Of a stretch of DNA of 64,000 nt, positions 11,502 to 52,732 are shown piece after piece; position 1 is the stretch's first letter; each line of letters opens with the position of its first letter. The stretch comes from a virus, in the IMG/VR virus record IMGVR_UViG_3300029310_000003; one strand, given 5' to 3'. Under the pieces are notes generated by a model that saw nothing but the letters and a program-made list of their open reading frames with translations, was not told the origin of the DNA and did not search any database. The position numbers and the translations under genes were made by a program.

Positions 11502-11666
11502 ATGGAAAAAGAACTTATCAAAATGATCGAAAAAACCAAGAATCAGGAAGCATTTCTGAACTTCCTGAAATTCTGCCTCCCGCGCGTGGAATCGGGTCTG
11601 ACGGTCGAAGAGATCTGGAACGAATGGCAGATCATCCGGAGCCACAGCGAGGAGCCACGCGTATGA
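11502..11666 (+). CDS. hypothetical small protein (54 aa), paralog of 19043..19216
   Basis: Internal ATG with an AAAGGA RBS. Shares the pattern KNQ..F..F..FC..R......TVE.IWN.W with the minus-strand 57-aa protein. Confidence 0.5.
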   Translation: MEKELIKMIEKTKNQEAFLNFLKFCLPRVESGLTVEEIWNEWQIIRSHSEEPRV

Positions 11667-12085
11667 CCGCACAGAAGATGGACGCGCTGGACATTGAAAT
11701 TTACCAGCTGATGAAGGAACTGGGCATTCCGGCCAGCATGACGGGCTATGACTACCTCCGCAGCGCCATCCGCCGCAGCGCAGAAAACGGCTGTCCCAAA
11801 ATTTCGACCATGAGCGCGGACGGGATCTATCCGAGGATCGCCGAAGAATTCGGCGTCAGCTCAAACAGCGTGGAGCGTGCGATCCGGAAGTCCATCGGAG
11901 TCGGAGTCGAGCGCGCCGGGGGCAGCAAATTTTATAAGGTGTTCGGCTTGAGCATGGACGCGGACAAAGCCCGTCCGACGAATGCGCAGTTCATCCGGCA
12001 GGCGGCGTTGGAGGCTCTCTGCCGGGAATCTGAAAAAAATCTGAAAACAGCGGGACAAAAGCGTGAAACGTGGCAGATTGGATAA
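11663..12085 (+). CDS. Spo0A C-terminal (DNA-binding) domain protein lacking a receiver domain
   Basis: 'GIPASMTGYDYLRSAI', 'IYPRIAEEFGVSSNSVERAIRKSI' and 'ARPTNAQFI' parallel Spo0A 'GVPAHIKGYLYLREAI', '[24 protein letters not shown]' and 'KPTNSEFI'. The start overlaps the upstream stop. Confidence 0.75.
   Translation: MTAQKMDALDIEIYQLMKELGIPASMTGYDYLRSAIRRSAENGCPKISTMSADGIYPRIAEEFGVSSNSVERAIRKSIGVGVERAGGSKFYKVFGLSMDADKARPTNAQFIRQAALEALCRESEKNLKTAGQKRETWQIG
12052..12079 (+). promoter_or_regulatory. cassette promoter-like motif (GGGACA-N16-CAGATT)
   Basis: GGGACA 12052-12057, CAGATT 12074-12079. Lies in the 3' end of the preceding CDS, 47 nt before ATG 12127. Confidence 0.45.
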
Positions 12086-13135: not shown

Positions 13136-13323
13136 TAGGCCCGCCGAACGGGGCAACGGAACTGCTTGGCCGGGCAATGCGCAGCAAGGGCATTGCGATG
13201 CGAAGATTAGGCAAGCAAAGGATTGGCAGCGAACAGAAGTGGGACGCAAAGCAGAGCAAAGGCAAAGCAAAGTACTGTGGCGCGGGGCAAAGGCAATGCT
13301 AGGACAAGCTGGGCAGAGCAAAG

Positions 13324-13363
13324 GCAGAGTTGCGCAGAGTCACGCAGAGTTGCGCAGAGTTGT
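13324..13363 (+). repeat. 4 tandem 10-bp repeats GCAGAGTYRY
   Basis: gcagagttgc|gcagagtcac|gcagagttgc|gcagagttgt. Embedded in a purine-rich about 350-nt tract (13140-13480) that also carries at least 6 GCAAAGG motifs. Confidence 0.8.
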
Positions 13364-13542: not shown

Positions 13543-14628
13543 ATGAGCTTCCCCAAAGCGTATGAAAAATTTCGGTCGGCCATGATCGCCTACGAAGATA
13601 ACCTCCGGGCGTTGGGACGTTCCGGAGTCACGATCAAAAATCAGGAACAGATCTTCAAAAATTTCTCCGGCTTCCTTCTGGAAAACAAATTGTGGGATCA
13701 TGAGGAGGGCTTTCCGGAGATCCTCGCATGGCGCGACCAGATGCGCCGGGACGGCAAAAAACCGTCCACCATCAAGCAGTATCTGACCGTCCTTTCTGCC
13801 ATGTACAATTTCGCCAGCTCCGAAGAACTCGGCGAAAACCGCTGGTACGACCGGAATCCCGTCGCAAAGCTCCTCATGCCGGATACGCGAAAGCTCGACA
13901 AGCGACCGTATGAGCAATTTTTGACCGACGAACAGGTCATGCTTCTCTGGCGAAATAACCCTCCCGCGAAAACCGTGGAAAGCCCGAAATTCTGGCCGCG
14001 AAATTACGCCATCGTCATTTTGCTTCTGACAACGGAGCTTCGCAACAGTGAGCTTCTGGCGCTGACGCCTGCGGATCTCGACTGGGAAAATTCCGAGCTG
14101 TACGTCGAGCACGGCAAGGGCGATAAATTCCGTCCGGTCGAATTCCCGCCGCTTGCGCAGACCGCCGTCCGGCTGTATCTTCGCAGCGGACTGCGTCCGG
14201 CGGCCGCAGGCGACCATGACCCGCTTTTTGGCACGGAGGCAACCAAGGAATTCAAGGGAACCAATCGGGGCGCAGAATGGCACGCAGGCACACGTCAGTG
14301 GCTTTCGGACGTCGTGAAGCGCCATGTAAAAACCGTGACCGGCGTGGATATGATCCGTTCGCACGATTTGCGGCACGTCGGCGCACGGCTCGATCTCAAC
14401 AGCGGCATGAGCTTTGAGGAGCTTCAGGCAAAACTCGGCCATGAATCCGTAGCGACCACGCAGATCTATTCCGGCAAGCTGACCAGCCGGAAAAACCGCC
14501 GTATGACGAAGATCGTGCAGGAGGAGAAGGAACGGCAGGCGCAGCGGAACGTCCTGCGTCTGGAAGAGTCGGGAGATGATTTTTTCGAACAGCTCCGGCT
14601 GAAACAGCCCCGGCCGGAGATCGCCTGA
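13543..14628 (+). CDS. int: tyrosine recombinase / phage integrase
   Basis: 361 aa. N-terminal SAM-like core-binding region. C-terminal 'HDLRHVGARL...LGHESVATTQIYSG' carries the HxxR...H...Y catalytic signature. Confidence 0.9.
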   Translation: MSFPKAYEKFRSAMIAYEDNLRALGRSGVTIKNQEQIFKNFSGFLLENKLWDHEEGFPEILAWRDQMRRDGKKPSTIKQYLTVLSAMYNFASSEELGENRWYDRNPVAKLLMPDTRKLDKRPYEQFLTDEQVMLLWRNNPPAKTVESPKFWPRNYAIVILLLTTELRNSELLALTPADLDWENSELYVEHGKGDKFRPVEFPPLAQTAVRLYLRSGLRPAAAGDHDPLFGTEATKEFKGTNRGAEWHAGTRQWLSDVVKRHVKTVTGVDMIRSHDLRHVGARLDLNSGMSFEELQAKLGHESVATTQIYSGKLTSRKNRRMTKIVQEEKERQAQRNVLRLEESGDDFFEQLRLKQPRPEIA

Positions 14629-14680
14629 ACAAACCAGAAAAACAGAAATGATCCGGGTTTCGTCGTAAGCCCGGAGGCAC

Positions 14681-14748
14681 GGCGGAGGCAGGTGCGTCGT
14701 GGGGATAACCCACACCCCGCGATTTCGGTTCAAATCCGGATTCCGCCG
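14681..14748 (+). other. tRNA-like fragment (good acceptor + T-arm, defective D/anticodon region); possible att core
   Basis: ggcggag...ttcgg-ttcaaat-ccgga-ttccgcc-g. Only 36 nt separate the acceptor 5' arm from the T-stem, and no canonical anticodon loop can be drawn. Confidence 0.3.
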
Positions 14749-14941
14749 CAATGCTGTGAGTTTGGGCATGGCTCACAGCTGGTCATAACTGACCTCCTTT
14801 CTGTGAAGAAAAGCGTCACCCATGTAAGCGAAGGCGCTCACCGGAACATTTCAGAGATTCCGGTGCTCCAGGCTGGGAAGCCTGGCCATGGGTTTTCGGG
14901 AAGAACGCTCCCGCACCGGAGTAAAACGGGGAGCCATTTAT

Positions 14942-15015
14942 GTGCGTGTAGTTTAATGGCAGAACATCAGACTTCCAATCTGATGGTGGGAGTTCGATTC
15001 TCCTCACGCACTCCA
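14942..15015 (+). tRNA. tRNA-Gly (anticodon UCC), CCA encoded
   Basis: Manual cloverleaf: acceptor gtgcgtg/cacgcac, D-stem gttt/gaac, anticodon stem tcaga/tctga with loop cTTCCaa, T-arm gggag-ttcgatt-ctcct, then tCCA. Confidence 0.85.
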
Positions 15016-15382
15016 CATGGGTATTGCGGCGGACTCAGGGAAAGTTTTGAGGTTCCAAAGGCTTGGTGAAACGATATATCCGGCCATCCGCTCAATCTGT
15101 AGGTAGTGCAAGTACGACAGATTGCGAATTTAATTAGCTGGCTCCGGCTTAATGTGTGAAAAAACGGATGCGACCGATGCACCGGCGCAGGGCTGAAAAG
15201 TTCCGTGGCTTACCCTCCCGGCCTTCCGACAGTCTGCTGTGAGGCGTAAAGGATGGAAGAAAAACCGGCGTGGCGACGCAGACCAACTTCTGCACGGAAG
15301 CGTCTAGGCGTCGAGTAACGGCGGCTCCGGAGCCGGGAGGCAGGCTGTAAAAACCAAGAAAAAAAGGCAAGGAGGAAAACAA

Positions 15383-15706
15383 ATGAGCTTGGAAATTCGC
15401 TATCTCACCAACGGCACGAAAAATGTCTACGTCGTCGCAGAGAAGGACGTGGCGCCGGTCGCGGTCCATTTCTACAGCGAACGGGACGAAATCCCCTATC
15501 AGATCCGTAACTACGCACCGAAAGGAAAGCCAATGTTTGTCGGGCCGGATTCGGCAAGAAACCTTTTTGCAATGAAAGCCCTGTATCCGGAGCTGATCCA
15601 CGAATTCTGCGACAAGCAGGAGTACGCCGGATCACCCTGCATCTTCGAGTCGTGCAGCCTCGCGGACTGGAAAACCTGCAAATACCGCTGTACCGCAAAA
15701 ATCTGA
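15383..15706 (+). CDS. hypothetical protein (107 aa)
   Basis: Strong AAGGAGGA RBS 7 nt upstream; unbiased composition. It sits between the two tRNAs. Confidence 0.6.
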   Translation: MSLEIRYLTNGTKNVYVVAEKDVAPVAVHFYSERDEIPYQIRNYAPKGKPMFVGPDSARNLFAMKALYPELIHEFCDKQEYAGSPCIFESCSLADWKTCKYRCTAKI

Positions 15707-16025
15707 ATGAAATCATGCGGCATTTGGCAAAGGGCAGTTACGAGCAGCTGTCCCAAGGCCGTTCGATTCGGTCACGCCGCACCATCGTAAAAATCGTGTG
15801 ACTAAGGTTTTCGTAGAACGCCGCGCATTTTCAAGATGCAAATCGTTCAGCTTGCCGGAGAAAGCCAACGCGTGGCAGATCCGGATGAAGTCACTTGAGA
15901 AGCCGAACTGACAAAACCGGCCGCACCGGAATCCGGTGTGAAGCGGAAACGGCAGGATGCCGCAAAGAACTGCCCGTTGGCCAGCGCGCATGGCCTCGCG
16001 TCCGGTACGTCAAGCCGGAAACGAC

Positions 16026-16101
16026 GGGCCGTTATCTCAAAGGCTAGAGCAACTCGCTCATAACGGGTAAAATCTCGGTTCGACTCCGGGACGGCCCACC
16101 A
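16026..16101 (+). tRNA. tRNA with CAU anticodon (elongator Met or Ile2), CCA encoded
   Basis: Acceptor gggccgt/acggccc, anticodon stem actcg/cgggt with loop ctCATaa, T-arm ctcgg-ttcgact-ccggg, then aCCA. Lacks the three G-C pairs of an initiator anticodon stem. Confidence 0.8.
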
Positions 16102-16129
16102 TGAAATTTTCGGGAAAGGAGGAAAAACC

Positions 16130-16402
16130 ATGAACAAGGAAGCACTTGCACAGGCCGTAGCCAATCGCACGAATATGCCGAAGGGCGCAGCGCTGGAATC
16201 CATCGACGCGGTTTTCGAAAGCATCCGTGAAGCGCTGATCTCGCACGAGACGGTGAACATTCCGGGCTTCGGAAAATTCGAAGCGCCGTATAAGGCGTCC
16301 AGAGTCGCAAGAAACCCGGCGACCGGCGGAACCATTTCGGTTCCTGCGCATCACGGCGTGAAATTCGCGCCCGCGAAGGCGCTGAAGGATGCCGTACATT
16401 AA
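16130..16402 (+). CDS. HU/IHF-family DNA-binding protein
   Basis: 90 aa. 'MNKEALAQAVA...ESIREALISHETVNIPGFGKFEAPYKASRVARNPATGGTISVPAHHGVKFAPAKALKDAV' is a canonical HU sequence. AAGGAGGA RBS. Confidence 0.9.
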   Translation: MNKEALAQAVANRTNMPKGAALESIDAVFESIREALISHETVNIPGFGKFEAPYKASRVARNPATGGTISVPAHHGVKFAPAKALKDAVH

Positions 16403-16471: not shown

Positions 16472-17017
16472 ATGGAACAGGAAATTCATCGCGGAGACGT
16501 ATTCTGGATCGCGGATGCACAAACGGCGGTCGGCTCCGAGTACACAAAAACCCGGCCGGCCGTGATCGTGTCCAACGAAGCAAATAACCGATACTCCGCA
16601 AATCTGGAGATCGTCTGGCTCACAACGGCCAATAAAAAGCCGCTTCCGACGCACGTCACGCTCTATTCCGCACCGCGCGTATCCGTCGCGCTTTGCGAGT
16701 GCGTCACAACGATCTCCAAGGAGCGTCTCCGGGAATATTATTGCACGCTCACGTCGGAGGAAATGGCGCATATCGACCGTGCCATCCGCATTTCGCTGGG
16801 GCTTCCGGAGCCTGCCGAAAAACCGGAAAAAACCGCATCGTCCGAAAAAACGCCGGATGATCTCCAGCTTTCCAACCTCCGCAGCGACTATCAGCTCCTG
16901 CTGAAAAAGCACGACGCTCTGCTTGCGCAGCAGGCCGTCTATGAGAAGATCTGCATGGCCTTCATTCCAAACTGGACGCCGCAGGCCAAAGCCGCAGAGA
17001 ACGGGAGCCGCGTATGA
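16472..17017 (+). CDS. MazF/PemK-family endoribonuclease toxin with ~65-aa C-terminal extension
   Basis: 'RGDVFWIADAQTAVGSEYTKTRPAVIVSNE...LEIVWLTTANKKPLPTHV...TISKERL' matches the PemK/MazF core. Residues from about 115 to 181 are an extra Pro/Glu-rich plus helical tail. Confidence 0.8.
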   Translation: MEQEIHRGDVFWIADAQTAVGSEYTKTRPAVIVSNEANNRYSANLEIVWLTTANKKPLPTHVTLYSAPRVSVALCECVTTISKERLREYYCTLTSEEMAHIDRAIRISLGLPEPAEKPEKTASSEKTPDDLQLSNLRSDYQLLLKKHDALLAQQAVYEKICMAFIPNWTPQAKAAENGSRV

Positions 17018-18123
17018 TCTACCTCGACCACGCAGCGACCTCTCCCCTTCTGGCCACCGCCCGCCGGGAATTTTACCGGGCCTCGCAATTCAGCTGGGGC
17101 AACCCAAATTCCGTCCATTCCTTCGGGATCGCAGCCGCGCGGGAGCTGGAAAGAGCGCAGAGGATCGTCGCCTATTGCCTTTCATGCAAGCCGGAACAGG
17201 TGATCTTCACCTCCTCCGCCACGGAAAGCTGCCGATTTGCCATGAACGCCATGATGTACGAATGCGGCAGCGTCCATATTTCCAGCTTTGAGCATAAGGC
17301 CGTTTCTGCCGGATGGGAAGACAGTTTCCGCTTTTTCGGGATCAACCGCAGCACCTCCGGCTTCGCACATATCCATACCGGCAACGAAACGGGCGAAATT
17401 TATGACCTCGCAAAAGCATTCGAGCCGTACACCGTCTGTTTTTCGGACTGCACGGCAGCCATGGGAAAAGCGCCCCTCGACTTCCGGCATGGAAAATGGT
17501 CGTACATCGCGGGCGGCGGACATAAATTCGGCGCACCCATCGGCATCGGCGTCCTGATCGCCAGAAAACCGGAGGTGATCCGAGAGCTTTTCCATCCGGC
17601 AACGCCCGCCGTTCCTCTGGCCGCAGCCCTCGCGCAGGCGCTTTTCTTCCGCACGGAGCATATCGCAGAATTTGCGGATACCGCCGGATACTTGCATGAC
17701 CGCCTGATCGATGGTATCATGGAGGAAATTCCAGACGCGCAGCTGAACGGCACGAAATATCGTGGAAACGAAAAAACACAGTCGCCCTATATCACGAGCA
17801 TTTCTTTCCCAAACATCGAAAATCATGCGCTTGTTCTGCGGATGTCCGCCGACGGCCTGATGGCGTCCTCCGGAGCCGCCTGTTCCAGCGGAGAAAACGA
17901 GCCGTCTCCGGTGCTTCTGGAATCCGGCTATCCCGCCGCCCGCGCAAGGAGCGCCGTCCGCTTTTCTCTGGACTATAAGCTCGACCCCTGCGCTTACGAA
18001 TTTTCGCACGATCTTGGCATCGACCGCCGCCGGGACGAAGCCATCATCGACCACGCCGTCAAAATCGTCGCGCAGAACGTCCGGGAGCTGAAAAAATTAT
18101 CTCCCGCGCGGGACAAAGCGTAA
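17014..18123 (+). CDS. class V aminotransferase / cysteine desulfurase (NifS/IscS-like)
   Basis: 'IYLDHAATSP', 'NPNSVHSFG', 'FTSSATES', 'HTGNETG', the PLP-Lys motif 'GGHKFGAPIGIGVL' and the catalytic Cys 'SSGAACSSG'. Its ATG overlaps the MazF stop (ATGA). Confidence 0.8.
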   Translation: MIYLDHAATSPLLATARREFYRASQFSWGNPNSVHSFGIAAARELERAQRIVAYCLSCKPEQVIFTSSATESCRFAMNAMMYECGSVHISSFEHKAVSAGWEDSFRFFGINRSTSGFAHIHTGNETGEIYDLAKAFEPYTVCFSDCTAAMGKAPLDFRHGKWSYIAGGGHKFGAPIGIGVLIARKPEVIRELFHPATPAVPLAAALAQALFFRTEHIAEFADTAGYLHDRLIDGIMEEIPDAQLNGTKYRGNEKTQSPYITSISFPNIENHALVLRMSADGLMASSGAACSSGENEPSPVLLESGYPAARARSAVRFSLDYKLDPCAYEFSHDLGIDRRRDEAIIDHAVKIVAQNVRELKKLSPARDKA

Positions 18124-28638: not shown

Positions 28639-31600
28639 TCACATATTTTTCTGGATCGCCAGCGTCGCCGCAGACCGCGCGAAATCCGCCACACTCATGC
28701 CTCGTGCGCGTCCCTCGGAGATCGTCACCCCTCCGAAGCTGTAAAAGCTGCATCCGTTCTGCTGTGTACCGACGTGGTGATCGTCATACGTCGAGCCTGC
28801 GAAAACGTTGGAATTCCGCAGATCTCCGCAGAGCGCCGCGCGCATCCGGTCCATCCCGCGCTCAAACCGCGCGTCCGCCTGCGGGACCAGAAGCATATTC
28901 TGGATGGCCCTTGTGATGTCCGGCGGCAGCACCATTTCCGGCTCCGCCGTAGCCTTGATCCCGCCGATCCCTTCGAGGATTCCGCCCCGGTCGTATACCG
29001 TGTAGACCTTTCCGTCCTTCTTCGTGATGGAGGTCGTCCCGTCGTAGTTTTTCAGCCACGACGTGCCGTCTCCGCCGGTCATTCTGGCTCCCGCCGCCTC
29101 GTAATTGAGGAAATCCAGACCCTTCTTGGAGCTGATGGTGTACCGGGAGCCGTCCTGCGCGTAGGCGTAGACCGTCCCGCTGTATTTCAGTCCGCTTCCG
29201 GAGCCGCCGGAGCCGCCGGAGCCTCCGGAGGAATCCCCACCCGGCGGCGCGTCGTACTGTCCGCCGTAATTGTAGGTGGTCTGATTTTTGTCCACCAGCT
29301 GAGACTGATACGTTCCGTCCGGATTGACGCCGATAATTTCATAAGTGCCGCCGCCTGTGACCACGCGGTCGCCCACGGAAAGCCCGGAGGGCGCTTTTCC
29401 GTCCGCGCCGACCTTCACGATGCGGTTTGCCGTTTCGTTCACCGCATCGGAGAGCTTCGACACGTCCACGCCGAACTGCCGGAAAATGTCCGCGTTTTCG
29501 AGAATGATCTTTTTCAGCTCCGGCGTCGCATTTTTCCAGATGTCCTGCAGGATCTCCCCGATCCCGCGCGTCTTGGCCTTGAGCGAATCGAGGAAATTGT
29601 TGTACTGCCGTTCCAGCGCGTCATACTGCGCGTTGATGGCGTCCTTCCGCGCCTCAATTTCCGCCACAGCCGCGTTGTACGCCAGATCGTCCTGAAAATC
29701 CTTGAGGTCCTTTTCAGCCTTTTCCAGAGAATCCTTCGCAGACTTGACGTTTCCCTCGTCCGCGACCCATTCCCACTGTCCCGTCGAAGCGTTCCACTGC
29801 CGGACCGTCCGCTCGTTCTGAGCGTTCGCAAGGTCCGCCTGTGCCTTCTGAACTGCGAGAATTTTTTCCTCCAGCGTCAGCTGGTCGTCCTTTGTCTCCT
29901 TCTGCCGTTTGAGCGCGTCGAGCTGCGCGTCCAGCGCGGCCAGCTCCGCATCCCTCGCATCCTGCTGGGAGCTGAGAGAATCCTGCATCGCATCCTTCAG
30001 CTCCGAAAGCAGGTCGTCCATGCTCTTCGTCTGCTCTTTGATCTTTTTCTGCCAGTCGTACCATTCCGAGGAAAGGTCGTTGATGTCGGCCTGACTGGCT
30101 CCGATGGAGCGCATATAATCCGCCTGTGCGGAAAGCGCGTCCTGAATTTCGCGCATTTTGGCCTTCTGCGCGTCCTCGCTGGCTCCCTGCTTTTCCAGCA
30201 GCGTCAGCTCGGATTTCAGCAGCGTCACGCGTTCCTTGTGCGCTGTCAGCGTCGCATCCGACGAGCTTCCGCCACCACCGGAGCCGGAACCCTTGGAACC
30301 GGAGCTGCCGGACTTGTTCCACGAACTTTCGCTGTAATCAAAGGAATCGTAAATCCCCTGAAGAAGCTTCTGTTCGCCCTCTTCATAGCTTCCTACCTGT
30401 CCGGTTTGAATCCATCCCTTGATGGTCCTGTCCGCGTCGGAGGATTTGATCCCGCTGATCGATGCAATGGAAGCCGCCGTTGCACCCGCCGCGCGTCCAA
30501 GCGCAACGACCTGCGCGATCTGCGCGGAAAGGTCAAGTCCCGTCTCGTTGAGCTTGATGATCTCCAGCGCCAGATCGTAAAGCGCTTTTCCGGAGTATCC
30601 GGCATTTTCCGCAACATCGAGCAGGGAAGAAACGAATTTCGCTGCCGCCTCGTCCGCGCTGGACGAAGCGCCGATCTGCTGCTGTGTCGCGTCCACATCC
30701 TCGAGGATCGCACTTGCCACCGCCTTGAGCGATTCTTCCGTGATCCGAAGCTGTCCGTCCTCGTCGGTCAGCATCTCCACATATTTATCACTCAGCCCGA
30801 TCAGGCTCTGCAGCGTGGAGGCGGAGATATTTCCGTTGATGCGGTATTCACCGAGCGCCGCCGATACCGCCGCAAGGTCGCTTTGCTGTGTTTTCAGCGC
30901 CTTGCCGTATTCCTGAATTTTCGAGACCTTTTCAGAAGTTTTCTGATTGTTCTCATCTGTGAGCTGATTGTTCTCCTCCAGCAGCTCATTTTCGCGCCCG
31001 TAACTGTCCAGAGTCCCGTCGCGCACCGCCTGAAGCTTGTTTTCCAGCTCCGTCTGATTCGCAATGGCTGTGTTATAATCCTCGACTGCCGACTTGACGC
31101 CGTTTATGAGCTTTTCATTGCTGGAATACTGGTTTTCGCCGAAAATTTTCGTTGCGTCCTGTTTTCCTGCATCGATTAGTTCCTTGCGGGCTTCCAGATT
31201 TTTCTGATAGTCCTTGATAACGGCTTCTGCACTGTCCAGTTCCAGCGCACCTGCCATCTGCGAACCGTAGGTGTCCTCCGCTGCGGCAATGAGCGCCTTT
31301 TCCGCCGCGATCGTCGCAGCCTTTGCGTCGTAAAGAGCCGCCTCGAGGGCCGATTCCGTAGAGGCCCGAATTGCCTCGTCCAGACTTCCGTATTTTGCCG
31401 TCAGATCGTCTACGCTTTCCTTTTCGTATCCGAGTTTTTTCAGCAGCCGGTCCGTCGCGTCCTCGAAGTCCTTTTTGGAGCCGGCACCGGTCTCATAGGA
31501 GCTTTTCAGATCGGAATAGGTCTGGTAGAGAGACTGAATTTCCTCGGCCTCCCGAGCCGCAGCCTTTCCGGCTTCCAGCGCTTTTTGCCGTGCTTCCTCC

Positions 31601-33546
31601 TGTGCGCTTTTTATTTTGTTGACCGCAAAAATGAGAATCCCAATTGCGGCTGTAACAGCGCCGATGGCCAGCTGCGTCGCAGAAAGGGAGATATTCAGCG
31701 ACTGCATGACCGCGCTGAACGACGATGCACTCACGCCCGCCGTCTTAAAGATCGTCACAAGTCCAGAAACGGCGCTTCCGATTTTTACAAACGTCGCAAC
31801 GACGCTGTTCCATTTCGCGGCAAGCAGGAAACCGCTGACGATCAGGAGCACATTTCCAAGATTGTCAAACCCGTCGATCAGCCACGTCAGCGCGTCCACA
31901 AGCCCCTTGATCCAGCTCGTGTCGATGGTTTTCGCAATAAATTCCGTCCATGTGTTTTTCAGCTGATTTGTCTTGGCTTCCCAGCTCGTCAGCATAATGC
32001 CGACTTCCTTATCCGCGCTTCCTGCCGCCGAAGCCACCTTATCGAGCATTTCGGCGTACATGTCGTAATTTTTAATGAGCGCGTCGAGCTGGTTCGTTCG
32101 AAGCTTGCCTCCAAGCTTTGTCTCGATCTCGGCCAGCTGTGCCTGCGTCAGAACGCCGTCCTTATACGCCTCTGCCAGCGCCGCAACGGCCTTCATCGGA
32201 TCGACGATCTTTCCCGCCGCATCCGCAGCCTTCATCGCGTCCTCCGCATAGATCCAGAGAACGTCGTTCAGCCCCTCGATCTCCTCCTTTGTCCACGTCA
32301 CGCCGTCCTCGATCTCGGTCTCGGTATCGCCGATGATGTTGAGGATCAGCGCGCGGAGCGCCGTCGCCGCCTTCGAGCCGGATTCCTGCGTGACCGCCGT
32401 GATCGTGCCGAGCGCCGCCATTGTCTCATCAATGGACATATTCGCCATCGACGCCACATTCGCAACGATTGGGAAGCCTTCGGCCAGCTTCTGAATGGAG
32501 GTCGCGTATTTATTTTCAATTTCGTTGGCCCTGTCGAGAACGCCGGAAAGCTCCTCGACATTGCCCTTCATCTTATAGGCCGCGTCCGCAGAAAGCAGGA
32601 ACTGATTCGCGGTCGCGGAGTTCACATCGCCGACGAGCTGCGTCTTGGTCGCCAGCTCCGCCATGTCCTCCGACATTTCTTTGTAACCGGCCTTCGCAAA
32701 CGTTCCCACGGATTCCAGATAATCCGCCACAGCCACGCCATACTGCGACGCGACCTCGTATGCGTGTTCGCTGAGACTGGCCATTTCCGCGTCGGTGTTG
32801 TTCGTCACCTTCTGGATCGCAACCAGCTCCGTGTCCACTTCCTTCATCGTCGCCAGCGCTTCCTTGAAGGAACGAATAACCGTGGCCACCGTTGCATTGA
32901 ACACCTGCCACGCAGCGACCTTTTTCAGGATGTTTCCAAGACTGTCTCCAAGGACGTTTGTTGATTTTTGCAGCTTTTCGGTGTCTGCCTTGGTCTGTGA
33001 AAATTCTGAACGCAGGCCAGCCAGCCCAGATTTCGCATCCTCCACGCTGTTCATCAACGTGTAGAATCCGCTGCTTCCGTCCTTCACGCCGTTTGCCAGC
33101 GCGTCCAGCTCCGTTCTGGCCTGTGCGACTCTTTCGGAAAGCCCGTCAAACGTACCTTTCGGATATTTCGCAGACGCGGCCGCTATGGAGTTTGCAAGAT
33201 CCGCATACTGCTTTTGGAGCGCCGGAATGCTGTTTTTTGCGTTCGTGAACCGCTGCTGCTCCGCCTTGTATGCGCGCTGTGACGCCTTTTCCGCCGCAGC
33301 CGCCGCTTTTCCCGCAGCTTTCTCCGTCTGTTCATAGTGCTGCGTAAACTTCCCGCGCAGACTATCTACGTTCTGCACCATCGTCTGCACAGAACGATTG
33401 AATTGGTTGATCGCCTCCATTCCGGAAGAATCCACCGTGACCTTGATTTTCTGCTCCTTCAAGCTGTTTACGTCCTTGATGAGCGTATCGAGCTGTGTCC
33501 GAACGACCTCTACTTGAAGCTGGACCTTATCCACATTTCCGGCCAT
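28639..33546 (-). CDS. tail tape measure protein
   Basis: 1635 aa, coiled-coil rich. Core 'IQKLAEGFPIVANVASMANMSIDETMAALGTITAVTQESGSKAATALRALILNI' is typical of TP901-type TMPs, with TM-like segments in the middle. Confidence 0.9.
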   Translation of the reverse strand: MAGNVDKVQLQVEVVRTQLDTLIKDVNSLKEQKIKVTVDSSGMEAINQFNRSVQTMVQNVDSLRGKFTQHYEQTEKAAGKAAAAAEKASQRAYKAEQQRFTNAKNSIPALQKQYADLANSIAAASAKYPKGTFDGLSERVAQARTELDALANGVKDGSSGFYTLMNSVEDAKSGLAGLRSEFSQTKADTEKLQKSTNVLGDSLGNILKKVAAWQVFNATVATVIRSFKEALATMKEVDTELVAIQKVTNNTDAEMASLSEHAYEVASQYGVAVADYLESVGTFAKAGYKEMSEDMAELATKTQLVGDVNSATANQFLLSADAAYKMKGNVEELSGVLDRANEIENKYATSIQKLAEGFPIVANVASMANMSIDETMAALGTITAVTQESGSKAATALRALILNIIGDTETEIEDGVTWTKEEIEGLNDVLWIYAEDAMKAADAAGKIVDPMKAVAALAEAYKDGVLTQAQLAEIETKLGGKLRTNQLDALIKNYDMYAEMLDKVASAAGSADKEVGIMLTSWEAKTNQLKNTWTEFIAKTIDTSWIKGLVDALTWLIDGFDNLGNVLLIVSGFLLAAKWNSVVATFVKIGSAVSGLVTIFKTAGVSASSFSAVMQSLNISLSATQLAIGAVTAAIGILIFAVNKIKSAQEEARQKALEAGKAAAREAEEIQSLYQTYSDLKSSYETGAGSKKDFEDATDRLLKKLGYEKESVDDLTAKYGSLDEAIRASTESALEAALYDAKAATIAAEKALIAAAEDTYGSQMAGALELDSAEAVIKDYQKNLEARKELIDAGKQDATKIFGENQYSSNEKLINGVKSAVEDYNTAIANQTELENKLQAVRDGTLDSYGRENELLEENNQLTDENNQKTSEKVSKIQEYGKALKTQQSDLAAVSAALGEYRINGNISASTLQSLIGLSDKYVEMLTDEDGQLRITEESLKAVASAILEDVDATQQQIGASSSADEAAAKFVSSLLDVAENAGYSGKALYDLALEIIKLNETGLDLSAQIAQVVALGRAAGATAASIASISGIKSSDADRTIKGWIQTGQVGSYEEGEQKLLQGIYDSFDYSESSWNKSGSSGSKGSGSGGGGSSSDATLTAHKERVTLLKSELTLLEKQGASEDAQKAKMREIQDALSAQADYMRSIGASQADINDLSSEWYDWQKKIKEQTKSMDDLLSELKDAMQDSLSSQQDARDAELAALDAQLDALKRQKETKDDQLTLEEKILAVQKAQADLANAQNERTVRQWNASTGQWEWVADEGNVKSAKDSLEKAEKDLKDFQDDLAYNAAVAEIEARKDAINAQYDALERQYNNFLDSLKAKTRGIGEILQDIWKNATPELKKIILENADIFRQFGVDVSKLSDAVNETANRIVKVGADGKAPSGLSVGDRVVTGGGTYEIIGVNPDGTYQSQLVDKNQTTYNYGGQYDAPPGGDSSGGSGGSGGSGSGLKYSGTVYAYAQDGSRYTISSKKGLDFLNYEAAGARMTGGDGTSWLKNYDGTTSITKKDGKVYTVYDRGGILEGIGGIKATAEPEMVLPPDITRAIQNMLLVPQADARFERGMDRMRAALCGDLRNSNVFAGSTYDDHHVGTQQNGCSFYSFGGVTISEGRARGMSVADFARSAATLAIQKNM

Positions 33547-50483: not shown

Positions 50484-50636
50484 TCAGCTCCGCGCGATTT
50501 CCTTCTTCTCGATTACCCTCGCGCTGATCTCCACCACGCGGATCAGATCTTTCGTCCGCTGAATTTCAACGTTTTTCCAGTCGTTCAGCGCCTTGTTAAT
50601 CGCCGGAAGATCTTTTTCCGTCAGAAATTCAATCAT
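50484..50636 (-). CDS. hypothetical small protein (50 aa)
   Basis: GGAGG RBS. MIEFLTEKDLPAINKALNDWKNVEIQRTKDLIRVVEISARVIEKKEIARS. Overlaps the portal stop by 8 nt. Confidence 0.4.
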   Translation of the reverse strand: MIEFLTEKDLPAINKALNDWKNVEIQRTKDLIRVVEISARVIEKKEIARS

Positions 50637-52380
50637 TCGTACCTCCGTACTGGTCGATCATCGTCTCGCTTCCGTCCGCCGTCACGGTTCCGTCGCCCTT
50701 CGGCCGTCCGGGAGACTGCGGCGGCAGTCCCGAGGAATCCTGCTTCATGTTGTATGCCGTCACCAGCGGCAGCCGCTTGTCGAGGATACCGCTGTTGTAG
50801 ACCGCATCCGACAAACACAGATCGTCCAGCATCGACCGGTCAAGCAGCGCGTTATAAAGAATGGTGTCCGGCAGAATTCCGTGTTCCATCCCATTCATGC
50901 ACCGTTCGAGCGTTTTTTCATCCTCCGCAATATCTCCAAACATGACGAATTTCCAGTCGTATTTGAGGTTGAGCTTTTTGATAATGGCATTCATCATCCG
51001 CTCAAAATCGCGGTAGACCGTCTGCATGAACTTACTTTCGATCTGAAGCGAGATCTGTGCCGTTCCTGCCTTCGGATCGTCTCCCAGTGGAATGATCGCG
51101 CCCATACCCGCCTGACTCATCGTGTCGCTGTAGCCCTGCTTCACAATATCCATTGCCGACGGAGCTTCCGACAGGCTTTCCAGTTTCATATTTTCAAACG
51201 GAGCCGCATACAGGCCGATTCCGCTTGTACTGTTCATCTGCAGCATGTCGTACCAGATTGCTTCAAACAGAAGCCGTCCGGCGTTACTGAGTTTGTATTG
51301 ATCCTCAGATGACGCTGCTTTGTCGTCCCGATAGGGAATTTCTCCGTGCAGGAGGCTCACAAGCGGATTCTGGATCAATTCCAGCTGGATCTGTTCCATC
51401 TGCGCCAGCTGGATCATGTTCAGGAAGAGTCCCGCGAACGGCGAGATTGCCGTCCGGCTCACATCGTCCGCTTCAAACGGGAAAACCGAATCGACCGGCA
51501 GATAGACCCAGTAATACCATCGTCCGTTCTGATAATAGACGTCCGGTGTCCCCGGTATATCGCCCATCGCCTGAATCCGCTGGAATTTTTGCATGTCAAT
51601 GCGCGTTTTCTGCGCAAAAACAACGCTTGTTCCCGTTCCTTCCGGCTTCTGCACCACGCTTCCAAAGTCGTACAGATACGGCAGAAACAGCTCTCCGAAC
51701 TGTTCCGGCACGCATCCCGGCTGCAGGAAGTACATCATGTTGAAGGCGACCGTATATTTGGAAACGTTATTATATCCCGTGATCTTCGTCCAGTCGCTGG
51801 GCAGCTGCTGCATGAATGCGTAGTTCACCTTGTTGTGGCTCTTGTCCACGCTGTAGCGCGGGTAGTAGAAAACCTTGCCTTCTACCCCGACCTGCCCGAC
51901 GATCTGGTGCGCGTTTTCCTTGGGCTTGAATTCCTCCCGGAGCTTTTCCGTCAGCTTCCATTCCCGCAGGAAATCGTCCTTTTTCGTATCCTCTCCGGAT
52001 ACCATTCTCGGCATCACATAGCTGTGATAGGTCAGCAGATTCTGGTACGTTTTCCGGATGTGAAACAGTGGATATGCCGTGTATTCCAGAATGTGCGATA
52101 CCTGCCGGAGCGGCTGCTCGCTGTCATACGGAGCCGTGAGCATCTCGCCGACCTTGTCTTTCGTGAAATTGACCGGCAGAGAGGATATCTGCTTGACGCG
52201 GCGATTTTGAATGTAGGGATTTGCCATCCCGTAGCGGCCGGCATTGATCCCGGCAAATGCCGTCGAGATCGCGCTCATCGGCATCCCCTGATTTTCTGCC
52301 GCCATCGTCCGGAGCTTTTCAAAGATCTGCGGGAATGCGGCGTATTGGAGCTTATTCAGTTCACTTGTCTCTATCGCCAT
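50629..52380 (-). CDS. putative portal protein
   Basis: 583 aa, between the terminase large subunit and the scaffold-like gene. Start MAIETS lies 8 nt after GGAGGA. Confidence 0.65.
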   Translation of the reverse strand: MAIETSELNKLQYAAFPQIFEKLRTMAAENQGMPMSAISTAFAGINAGRYGMANPYIQNRRVKQISSLPVNFTKDKVGEMLTAPYDSEQPLRQVSHILEYTAYPLFHIRKTYQNLLTYHSYVMPRMVSGEDTKKDDFLREWKLTEKLREEFKPKENAHQIVGQVGVEGKVFYYPRYSVDKSHNKVNYAFMQQLPSDWTKITGYNNVSKYTVAFNMMYFLQPGCVPEQFGELFLPYLYDFGSVVQKPEGTGTSVVFAQKTRIDMQKFQRIQAMGDIPGTPDVYYQNGRWYYWVYLPVDSVFPFEADDVSRTAISPFAGLFLNMIQLAQMEQIQLELIQNPLVSLLHGEIPYRDDKAASSEDQYKLSNAGRLLFEAIWYDMLQMNSTSGIGLYAAPFENMKLESLSEAPSAMDIVKQGYSDTMSQAGMGAIIPLGDDPKAGTAQISLQIESKFMQTVYRDFERMMNAIIKKLNLKYDWKFVMFGDIAEDEKTLERCMNGMEHGILPDTILYNALLDRSMLDDLCLSDAVYNSGILDKRLPLVTAYNMKQDSSGLPPQSPGRPKGDGTVTADGSETMIDQYGGTND

Positions 52381-52732
52381 TTTCCGCATCCTCCGCCGTT
52401 CCGGCCTGCTTTCTGCGTTCTTCTGCCAGCGCGCTTGACAGCTCGTCGATCATCCGGCTCAGATTCTCCATTGTTTTCGGCTTTTCCTTTTCCAGCCGTT
52501 CCCGCAGAAGCGCCGTCGCGCAGCTCATGATCCAGTCTTCGTCTGCCTTCGTCAGCCGCTTCACGTTTTCTCCGTCGATCTCCATGCCGCCCTCTGGCCG
52601 AGCACCCGCCGTATAGATCAGGATGTATCCCGGCGCGATCCTGCTGAACCGTTCGCGCATCGCCGTTTCCACAGCCTCCTGTGTCACGCGCAGCGCATAT
52701 AGCCGGTATACCTTCGTCTGATCTTCTGTCAT
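52361..52732 (-). CDS. hypothetical protein (123 aa)
   Basis: ORF track entry, between TerL and the portal gene. Confidence 0.5.
   Translation of the reverse strand: MTEDQTKVYRLYALRVTQEAVETAMRERFSRIAPGYILIYTAGARPEGGMEIDGENVKRLTKADEDWIMSCATALLRERLEKEKPKTMENLSRMIDELSSALAEERRKQAGTAEDAENGDRDK

Follow-up and report, generated by a model that had tools for sequence, protein, structure and literature searches.

A conserved structured RNA joined to the 3' end of tRNA genes in the tRNA operons of gut phages

The transfer RNA (tRNA) gene cluster of phage T4 also encodes two stable RNAs, 'species 1 and 2' (rnaC and rnaD; ~120–140 nucleotides, nt), which are co-transcribed with the tRNAs and cut from the same precursor. 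Larger structured RNAs are associated with other phage tRNA islands. ROOL is a large structured non-coding RNA of Firmicutes phages and prophages that often lies near tRNA islands and has no associated protein (PMC5737381, PMC12286853). GOLLD occurs in phage tRNA islands, sometimes directly 3' of a tRNA, and comprises a conserved part joined to a less conserved 5' part; both ROOL and GOLLD build RNA-only cages (PMC12286853). The present work deals with another RNA of this niche, here named E, found in a 64,000-nt stretch of DNA (hereafter the window) from the viral record IMGVR_UViG_3300029310_000003, in the interval between an integrase gene (int) and the gene encoding HU. The best explanation of this int-HU interval is a phage tRNA operon with several non-coding RNA modules between or beside two real tRNAs. 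E itself, located in the second of the three non-coding spacers, is a conserved and strand-specific folded RNA element, present once per phage, with covarying peripheral helices and a near-invariant three-way core, and it is fused to the 3' end of tRNA or tRNA-like genes inside phage tRNA operons.

An initial annotation of the locus, made from the sequence alone, had pointed to ROOL and GOLLD as large RNAs typical of such a setting, and had proposed a scan with Rfam models that included HEARO, raiA and group I introns. This lead did not survive the scan with Rfam 15, which was run over the whole window (gathering thresholds), over 14400–16300 (E<=10) and over ten diverse homologous loci (gathering thresholds). 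In the whole window, only RF00005 passes, for the two tRNAs, and none of the five candidate families is returned, nor any known self-cleaving ribozyme, RNase P RNA, 6S RNA or signal recognition particle (SRP) RNA; no transfer-messenger RNA (tmRNA) is found in the window by default ARAGORN or Rfam. Over 14400–16300, nothing credible besides the tRNAs appears even at E<=10, the sub-threshold matches being to eukaryotic long non-coding RNA and plastid models, with 15–26 bits against gathering scores of 40–80. The ten homologous loci yield tRNAs only.

The likeness of E to ROOL and GOLLD is one of setting only, as E is also phage-borne, carried in a tRNA island and devoid of a protein partner. This setting, together with the joining of a conserved part to a variable 5' part (PMC5737381, PMC12286853), is what could make E a highly divergent member of ROOL, of GOLLD or of another catalogued class of large RNAs, missed by the Rfam models; such an identity is nevertheless extremely improbable, given the lack of any match at E<=10 in a search space of 1.9 kilobases (kb) or in the ten diverse homologues, and the length of E, ~260–340 nt across the family against ~580 nt for ROOL and >800 nt for GOLLD. 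Compared with ROOL, which it matches neither in sequence nor in structure, E is about half as large, has a model with far fewer junctions and no pseudoknot, and possesses a long near-invariant core where ROOL has few highly conserved nucleotides; furthermore, E abuts the 3' end of a tRNA whereas ROOL is merely nearby. Compared with GOLLD, there is no model match, the whole spacer that carries E measures 367 nt, and conservation in E is highest centrally (helices Pb and Pc and loop J, described below), with variable modules on both sides. By every test of ROOL or GOLLD membership that was run, i.e. model match, size and architecture, E falls outside these classes. It is a new class, unrelated to known families, within a known kind of element. 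Its core sequence was not found in a literature search, and the texts of two large catalogues of structured-RNA candidates (PMC10690425, PMC8040213) do not describe it; E could overlap with unnamed viral candidate entries in PMC10690425. That E is a real structured RNA is held with high confidence, while confidence in any specific function is low.

In the window, E spans 15016–15353 on the + strand (338 nt, or 261 nt without its variable 5' module). RNAs of this family occur in phages of gut Oscillospiraceae and related Clostridia; at least 150 gut-phage contigs carry one, among the carriers being MT835513, MT835520 and the UViG_3300045988 contigs of IMG/VR. The 27-mer CCGGCGCAGGGCTGAAAAGTTCCGTGG of the core (15182–15208) has exact matches in more than 119 IMG/VR contigs, a lower bound drawn from the matches listed, and 3 matches among 185,579 species-representative genomes, all of them in metagenome-assembled genomes (of Oscillospiraceae, Oscillibacter and Eubacteriales). 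The 15 nt located upstream of this 27-mer are identical in 70 of 71 distinct sequences, though they were absent from the query, and a scan with this 15-mer provided 26 further copies bearing single-position variants of the 27-mer as well as clearly divergent members (L300, L282 and L248). Against GenBank phages, blastn finds the segment 15126–15237 of the window ~80% identical to two unannotated human-faecal phage contigs, both of which display the same order, i.e. a tRNA, then 330–400 nt of non-coding sequence, then an open reading frame (ORF) or more tRNAs and HU.

From 5' to 3', E begins with a subfamily-specific module (15016–15092), replaced by unrelated sequence in other subfamilies, whose helix GCGGA/TCCGC is weakly supported (93% paired, no both-side change). 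Then comes the helix Px (15093–15124), formed by CAATCTGT/ACAGATTG and an inner GTA/TAC closed by a 7-nt loop, in which 8 of the 11 pairs show both-side changes among 71 distinct sequences; the stem caatctgt/acagattg (15093–15100/15117–15124) pointed out in the initial annotation belongs to this helix. An AU-rich linker (15125–15135) separates Px from the hairpin Pa (AGCTG-GCTC-CGGCT, 15136–15149; 96% paired), which includes a U-G pair invariant in 71/71 sequences and has compensated variants, AACTG/CGGTT in L119 and GTCTG/CGGAC in L084. Beyond an A-rich linker (15150–15163) lies the near-invariant core (15164–15206). In this core, Pb (ACGGA/TCCGT, 15164–15168 with 15202–15206) encloses Pc (TGCG-A-CCG/CGG-CGCA with a 6-nt loop, 15169–15189) and the 11-nt internal loop J, GGGCTGAAAAG (GGGCUGAAAAG), at 15190–15200, variants of which are rare.

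The 3' domain (15207–15346) is closed by the long-range helix Pd, GGCTT+CCTCCCGGC / GCCGGGAGG+AGGCT (15207–15222 with 15332–15346), which encloses 109 nt folded in several helices. The inner part of Pd is the 9-base-pair (bp) complementarity cctcccggc/gccgggagg (15214–15222/15332–15340) that had been noticed in the initial annotation and that proves to be kept across homologues with differing sequences. Indeed, no variant lacks Pd (100 sequences show 63 versions of it, at least 8 of them unrelated), and its boundaries are constant, as it starts at the GG that follows Pb and ends at YUG. Two unpaired motifs, GAGGCG (15241–15246) and GAGTAA (15313–15318), are conserved in this otherwise variable domain, the consensus sequences GAGGC[GU] and G[UA]GUA[AG] each being present, at fixed relative positions, in 112 of 115 distinct 3' domains. 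A tail, GTAAAAA (15347–15353; family consensus YUG-UG(A/U)AA), lies directly 3' of Pd.

Examined on homologous phage regions, as the initial annotation had proposed, covariation in E is positive. In alignment A2 (20 full-length sequences of the window subfamily), 95.3% of the cells of 76 modelled pairs are paired and 9 pairs are changed on both sides, against 35–47% of paired cells in controls whose partner was slid by 1–3 columns; in alignment A1 (71 distinct cores), 95.6% of the cells of 28 pairs are paired, with 79 cells changed on both sides, it being understood that the structure model was partly derived from the same sequences as those used to score pairing. The covariance model R1, which describes the core as Px – AU linker – Pa – A linker – Pb[Pc]J, recognizes a single copy in the window (15084–15212; 127.7 bits, E=2e-33), a match expected by construction because the window sequence is in the seed alignment. 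R1 detects exactly one match per phage, without any second or divergent copy within a phage, and no match at E<=1 in 0.9 megabases (Mb) of unrelated viral DNA. Four loci (L004, L106, L267 and L297) carry truncated or internally deleted copies, with methyltransferase-like coding sequence in place of the 3' domain in L004 and L106; loss or disruption of E is therefore possible in some phages.

The conserved sequence could also act as DNA, i.e. as an attP core, a pac or cos site, an origin or a recombination hotspot of mosaic phages, since it lies 0.4–0.6 kb from int in loci of the window type and near terminase genes elsewhere, with mosaic breakpoints on either side of the conserved core. This is very improbable. 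G-U pairs account for 10–11% of paired cells, far exceeding A-C (0.5–1.9%), and helices 110–130 nt apart are preserved by compensatory change. All of the tRNAs found within 3 kb of E copies (162/162) are on the same strand as E; with the excess of G-U over A-C, this indicates that a + strand RNA and not duplex DNA is under selection. Furthermore, the position of E relative to int and to terminase genes is inconstant, and the core is so rare among the species genomes (3 of the 185,579) that no host attB carries it.

In the window, E begins at 15016, the base directly after the CCA of a tRNA-Gly. The same arrangement is general: of the 116 loci whose upstream sequence is long enough, 75 have a tRNA call ending 103–173 nt before the core, that is where the 5' module of E starts, and the tRNAs involved include those for Gly, Trp, Thr, Met, Ser, Leu and Arg. 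In most of the others, this position before E is occupied by odd tRNA-like genes ending in ...ACCA. One of these, a gene of ~92 nt (GCGGCAT...ATGCCGTACCA), lies directly upstream of E in L003, L005, L015, L030 and ~20 other loci; it contains three internal hairpins, two of which are swapped for different but still paired sequences in L058, receives no ARAGORN call and shares its first 7 nt with a window element located at 15717–15784 (see below). Other loci have tRNA genes with long insertions, or long extra arms of 88–110 nt (L002, at 2820–2907, and, upstream of E, loci of the L006/L029 type), which the Rfam tRNA model accepts (49 bits in L002) and default ARAGORN rejects.

This exact junction with the CCA of many unrelated tRNAs would be expected if E were a self-processing ribozyme with a cleavage site in the region of the tRNA-CCA/E junction, or at its own 3' end, which would thereby free both the tRNA and E. 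Precursors that contain CCA are indeed poor RNase Z substrates in Firmicutes, and the core of E, with ~45 near-invariant nucleotides around an internal loop, resembles those of ribozymes. However, what lies next to the junction is the variable 5' module, whose nucleotides change from one subfamily to another, and no known ribozyme family matches, so that self-cleavage appears improbable.

The downstream side of E is inconstant. E is followed by the 107-amino-acid (aa) ORF of the window, by ORFs encoding small zinc-ribbon or membrane proteins, by ParB-like or terminase genes, by further tRNAs (L002, L076, L248) or by a terminator-like hairpin (L300). Terminator-like sites are rare after E (3 of 129 loci). 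On the + strand of the int-HU interval, a promoter/terminator scan finds no promoter-like site and only two weak terminator-like consensus matches (14781–14794 and 14871–14887), both of which lie inside conserved, covarying stems and look like chance matches. Taken with the rarity of terminators after E, this lack of a promoter and of a convincing terminator suggests that E would lie within a polycistronic transcript that also contains tRNAs. A further conserved structured module (...GCCC-TTCG-GGGC GGGTAAAGTCTGCTATGTAAGGCCAAGGGGCGGGGGCTGGTAGCAAA) was observed 20–150 nt downstream of E in L001, L003, L005, L012, L024 and others, upstream of varied late genes (terminase small subunit, ParB-like, small ORFs); it is absent from the window.

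E might instead be a cis-acting leader of the downstream genes, either a 5' mRNA stabilizer exposed after tRNA removal or a leader for processive antitermination or late-operon expression. The scarcity of terminators after E, the strong ribosome-binding site of the 107-aa ORF into which E runs in the window and the many loci where E lies just upstream of terminase or ParB-like late genes all agree with such a role. It is nonetheless unlikely: the downstream element varies and may itself be a tRNA or a terminator-like hairpin, no gene family co-occurs with E in more than ~25% of loci, and a near-invariant internal loop plus a 140-nt multi-helix domain exceed what a stabilizer needs.

On balance, we lean towards E being a non-coding RNA that is made and processed together with the phage tRNAs and then acts in trans through its core. 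E would be co-transcribed with the tRNAs as a single precursor, and its 5' end would be produced by whichever nuclease frees the 3' end of the upstream tRNA. It would then work in trans as a stable non-coding RNA whose invariant core binds a conserved partner, most plausibly a component of the tRNA or translation machinery of the host. Species 1 and 2 of T4 would resemble such an E in being non-tRNA stable RNAs placed beside phage tRNAs; they are much smaller and belong to another phage group and host. A bolder proposal, which we regard as decidedly unlikely, makes E the first example of a new class of ornate phage RNAs that take an active biochemical part in tRNA biology. Such an RNA might process itself at the tRNA-CCA junction, or form an RNA-only complex like those of ROOL and GOLLD, possibly while it is still attached to phage tRNAs or holds them; with the anticodon-less tRNA-like elements of the interval, it would form an RNA-based module taking over or protecting host translation.

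Several points weigh against a processed, trans-acting E. No conserved protein partner occurs near it, the top family (31 of ~124 loci) being a spurious antisense ORF, and E usually runs without a terminator into a downstream ORF, which also fits a role as 5' leader. Pb and Pc are invariant and thus provide no covariation support, and part of this invariance results from the way in which loci were gathered. The sampling of the family is shallow (effective sequence number of A1, 1.37), so that many of the compensatory changes are inherited and not independent. The transcription, the processing and the stability of E are all points that we infer. Finally, the window copy of E folds no better than shuffled sequence: the folding energy of spacer 2 has a z-score of -0.8 against shuffled controls, compared with -3.7 for spacer 1 and -2.5 for spacer 3. 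The spacers had been described as hairpin-dense, which is true of the first and third but not of the second. With such a z-score, the RNA of spacer 2 would escape detection by folding energy alone; the evidence for it is comparative.

Other likenesses of E or of its surroundings were considered and rejected. Relaxed ARAGORN makes 'tmRNAp' calls, which would correspond to a permuted tmRNA, but they lie on the opposite strand and have implausible tags, and by eye the AU-rich linker shows no conserved tag frame. An RNase P-like P4 (CCGGCUU with GAAAAGUUCCG) is contradicted by the local pairing of CGGCU in Pa, compensated in L119 and L084 while the alleged partner is unchanged. Likeness of the core to 5S or 23S rRNA amounts to short identities without a model match. 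In a T-box-like pairing of UGGN with the NCCA of the upstream tRNA, N does not track the discriminator base. A trans target of loop J within the phage is not indicated either, as the complement of J is not enriched (where 1.8 matches with <=1 mismatch are expected, 5 occur, and these include J itself read from the other strand). Lastly, the loose pattern Pa + AACGGAV gave chance matches only, and the loci concerned were reused as a negative control.

The interval as a whole had been viewed as holding about 1 kb of candidate structured RNA. Comparison of homologous loci shows no single ~1-kb RNA but a string of separate modules, each recombining independently between phages. Structured RNA is well founded in spacer 2 (~340 nt, covarying) and in the cloverleaf of spacer 1, while the two other tRNA-like folds of the interval have little or no covariation support. 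All the local stems cited in the initial annotation are present in the sequence, and two of them, caccgg(a)/(t)ccggtg (14841.../...14866) and ccaggc/gcctgg (14869–14886), are arms of this cloverleaf.

Spacer 1 starts, 24 nt after the int stop codon, with a GC-rich hairpin (TCCGGG...CCCGGA, 14652–14675, +) read from the minimum-free-energy fold; its stem is kept in 4 distinct homologues, its loop varies, and no T-run follows. Next comes a first tRNA-like element (14681–14748, +; sequence reading and minimum-free-energy fold), with a 7-bp acceptor GGCGGAG/TTCCGCC, a canonical T arm TTCGG-TTCAAAT-CCGGA and a central stem of 8–9 bp with a 10-nt loop, and without a D arm. Missed by default ARAGORN, it is called (14673–14749) at a score threshold of 80% of the default. 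Its T arm is preserved in the L020 variant through both-side changes, but covariation support is weak because there are only 4 distinct homologues. It is possible, though doubtful, that this element alone is not a functional RNA but the attP region, in which a host tRNA gene, or only the 3' half of one, has been copied for use by the adjacent integrase. Tyrosine integrases often target 3' halves of tRNA genes, and the element begins 53 nt after the int stop codon, accompanies int in homologous loci and has a perfect T arm and 3' acceptor strand. On the other hand, its 5' acceptor strand, needless for an attP core, is also there and paired 7/7; the D arm and a normal anticodon arm are lacking, so that the element is not a copy of a working tRNA; and two similar D-armless elements sit far from int.

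Two further hairpins lie between this element and 14793. They are followed by an anti-Shine-Dalgarno-like sequence, CCTCCTTTC (CCUCCUUUC), at 14793–14801 (+), identical to the anti-Shine-Dalgarno 3' end of 16S rRNA; this (C)TCCTTTC is kept in 22/22 distinct homologues, just upstream of the cloverleaf. Read on the opposite strand, the same positions give a strong ribosome-binding site, with an ATG and an ORF of 18 codons after it. The cloverleaf, which is the second tRNA-like element (14819–14892, +; alignment A3), has an outer stem CCCATG/CATGGG, a short arm AGCG/CGCT, a long variable arm and an arm CCAGGC/GCCTGG with the loop TGGGAAG, which is non-canonical for a T loop. In A3, 98.4% of the cells of its 22 pairs are paired, against 31–37% in slid controls, and 7 pairs are changed on both sides. 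Relaxed ARAGORN labels it 'SeC tca'; its middle arm is not a decoding anticodon arm, because both its length and its loop sequence vary between loci.

The third tRNA-like element (15717–15784, +; alignment A4) is in spacer 3. It has an acceptor GCGGCAT/ACGCCGC with one A-C mismatch, a discriminator A, an encoded CCA and a T arm GGCCG-TTCGATT-CGGTC; a D arm is lacking, and a 10-nt loop closes the bulged central stem of 6 bp. Pairing in A4 reaches 98.4%, and a single pair, in the T arm, is changed on both sides. ARAGORN calls it in relaxed or mitochondrial mode only. Neither default ARAGORN nor RF00005 calls any of the three elements, and none has the 7-nt anticodon loop on a 5-bp stem and the D arm of a canonical tRNA. 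An acceptor combined with a T-loop-like 7-nt loop is found in the first (TTCAAAT) and the third (TTCGATT, then ACCA). Among the three, and as judged from the alignments, covariation support is strong only for the cloverleaf. The stretch 15801–15950 is common to only 2 loci; within it, the second caccgg/ccggtg stem of the initial annotation (~15917–15935) is present in the sequence, but this part is shared with only 2 other loci and gives the stem no comparative support. Closer to the downstream tRNA, two conserved hairpins (15975–16025, +) comprise GGCCA...TGGCC and the invariant CCGGTACGTCAAGCCGG, the first covarying by eye (GGCCA/TGGCC, GGTCT/AGACC and GGTTT/AAACC among 7 sequences).

In other systems, tRNA-like structures serve as processing signals, for example mascRNA at the 3' end of MALAT1 and the tRNA punctuation of mitochondrial transcripts. 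By analogy, non-decoding cloverleaf-like elements could bring RNase P or RNase Z to the cutting sites of a polycistronic transcript, which would fit the three tRNA-like elements; the known cases are eukaryotic or organellar. The three anticodon-less elements would thus be extra RNase P-type processing signals, or decoys.

The remaining features of the interval are located where the initial annotation had placed them, namely the two tRNAs, on which ARAGORN and Rfam agree, the ORF and the three spacers. The tRNA-Gly(UCC) (14942–15015, +; Rfam tRNA 71.5 bits) encodes its CCA at 15013–15015. The tRNA with anticodon CAU (16026–16101, +; 50.8 bits), which also encodes CCA and is followed by HU, is read as Met or Ile2, as its G1-C72 pair would argue against initiator identity. 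The 107-aa ORF (15383–15706, +; ORF listing), preceded by the strong ribosome-binding site mentioned above, lies outside the E RNA. It is kept as a protein, 3' of E, in 17 related loci (17 of ~124 E loci) and is therefore an inconstant neighbour; its Cys-rich C-terminus (C..C....C.......C...C) is conserved, and it has no match in Pfam or PHROG.

The window is a phage genome, with genes for a tape-measure protein (28639–33546, -) and a portal protein (50629–52389, -), and a + strand block from ~1 to 18 kb that includes the integrase (13543–14628, +; Pfam), HU (16130–16402, +; Pfam), a MazF/PemK-like protein and a class-V aminotransferase. The last (17014–18123, +) is cysteine-desulfurase-like (Pfam Aminotran_5) and accompanies the tRNA island in 17 related loci, ~2 kb downstream of E. 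Class-V aminotransferases of the cysteine-desulfurase kind provide sulfur for tRNA thiolation; the phage may therefore also modify tRNAs. The MazF/PemK-like gene (16472–17017, +), directly 3' of HU, encodes a toxin domain with a C-terminal extension of ~70 aa and has no obvious antitoxin gene upstream. The 400-nt gap upstream of int carries short tandem repeats, GCAAA x5 (13246–13272) and GCAGAGTTGC x3.9 (13324–13362), which may be arm-type sites of the integrase or binding sites of a regulator. Farther upstream (11624–12085, +), a protein matching the Spo0A C-terminal DNA-binding domain (E=1e-22) hints at interference with host sporulation control.

Large, highly conserved RNAs of bacteria and phages that lack a protein partner are uncommon, and time and again they have opened up new biochemistry. 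E would be a third RNA of the phage tRNA-island niche, smaller than ROOL and GOLLD, unrelated to them and originating from abundant human-gut phages. With a 5' boundary fixed at the 3' end of a tRNA and an almost invariant core of ~45 nt, it is suited to the design of experiments and gives a tractable route to understanding why phages put structured RNAs inside their tRNA operons. The anticodon-less tRNA-like elements bear on the cutting of phage polycistronic RNAs and possibly on the evasion of host defences that target tRNAs. More generally, the spacers of phage tRNA arrays can be functional RNAs themselves, as E shows.

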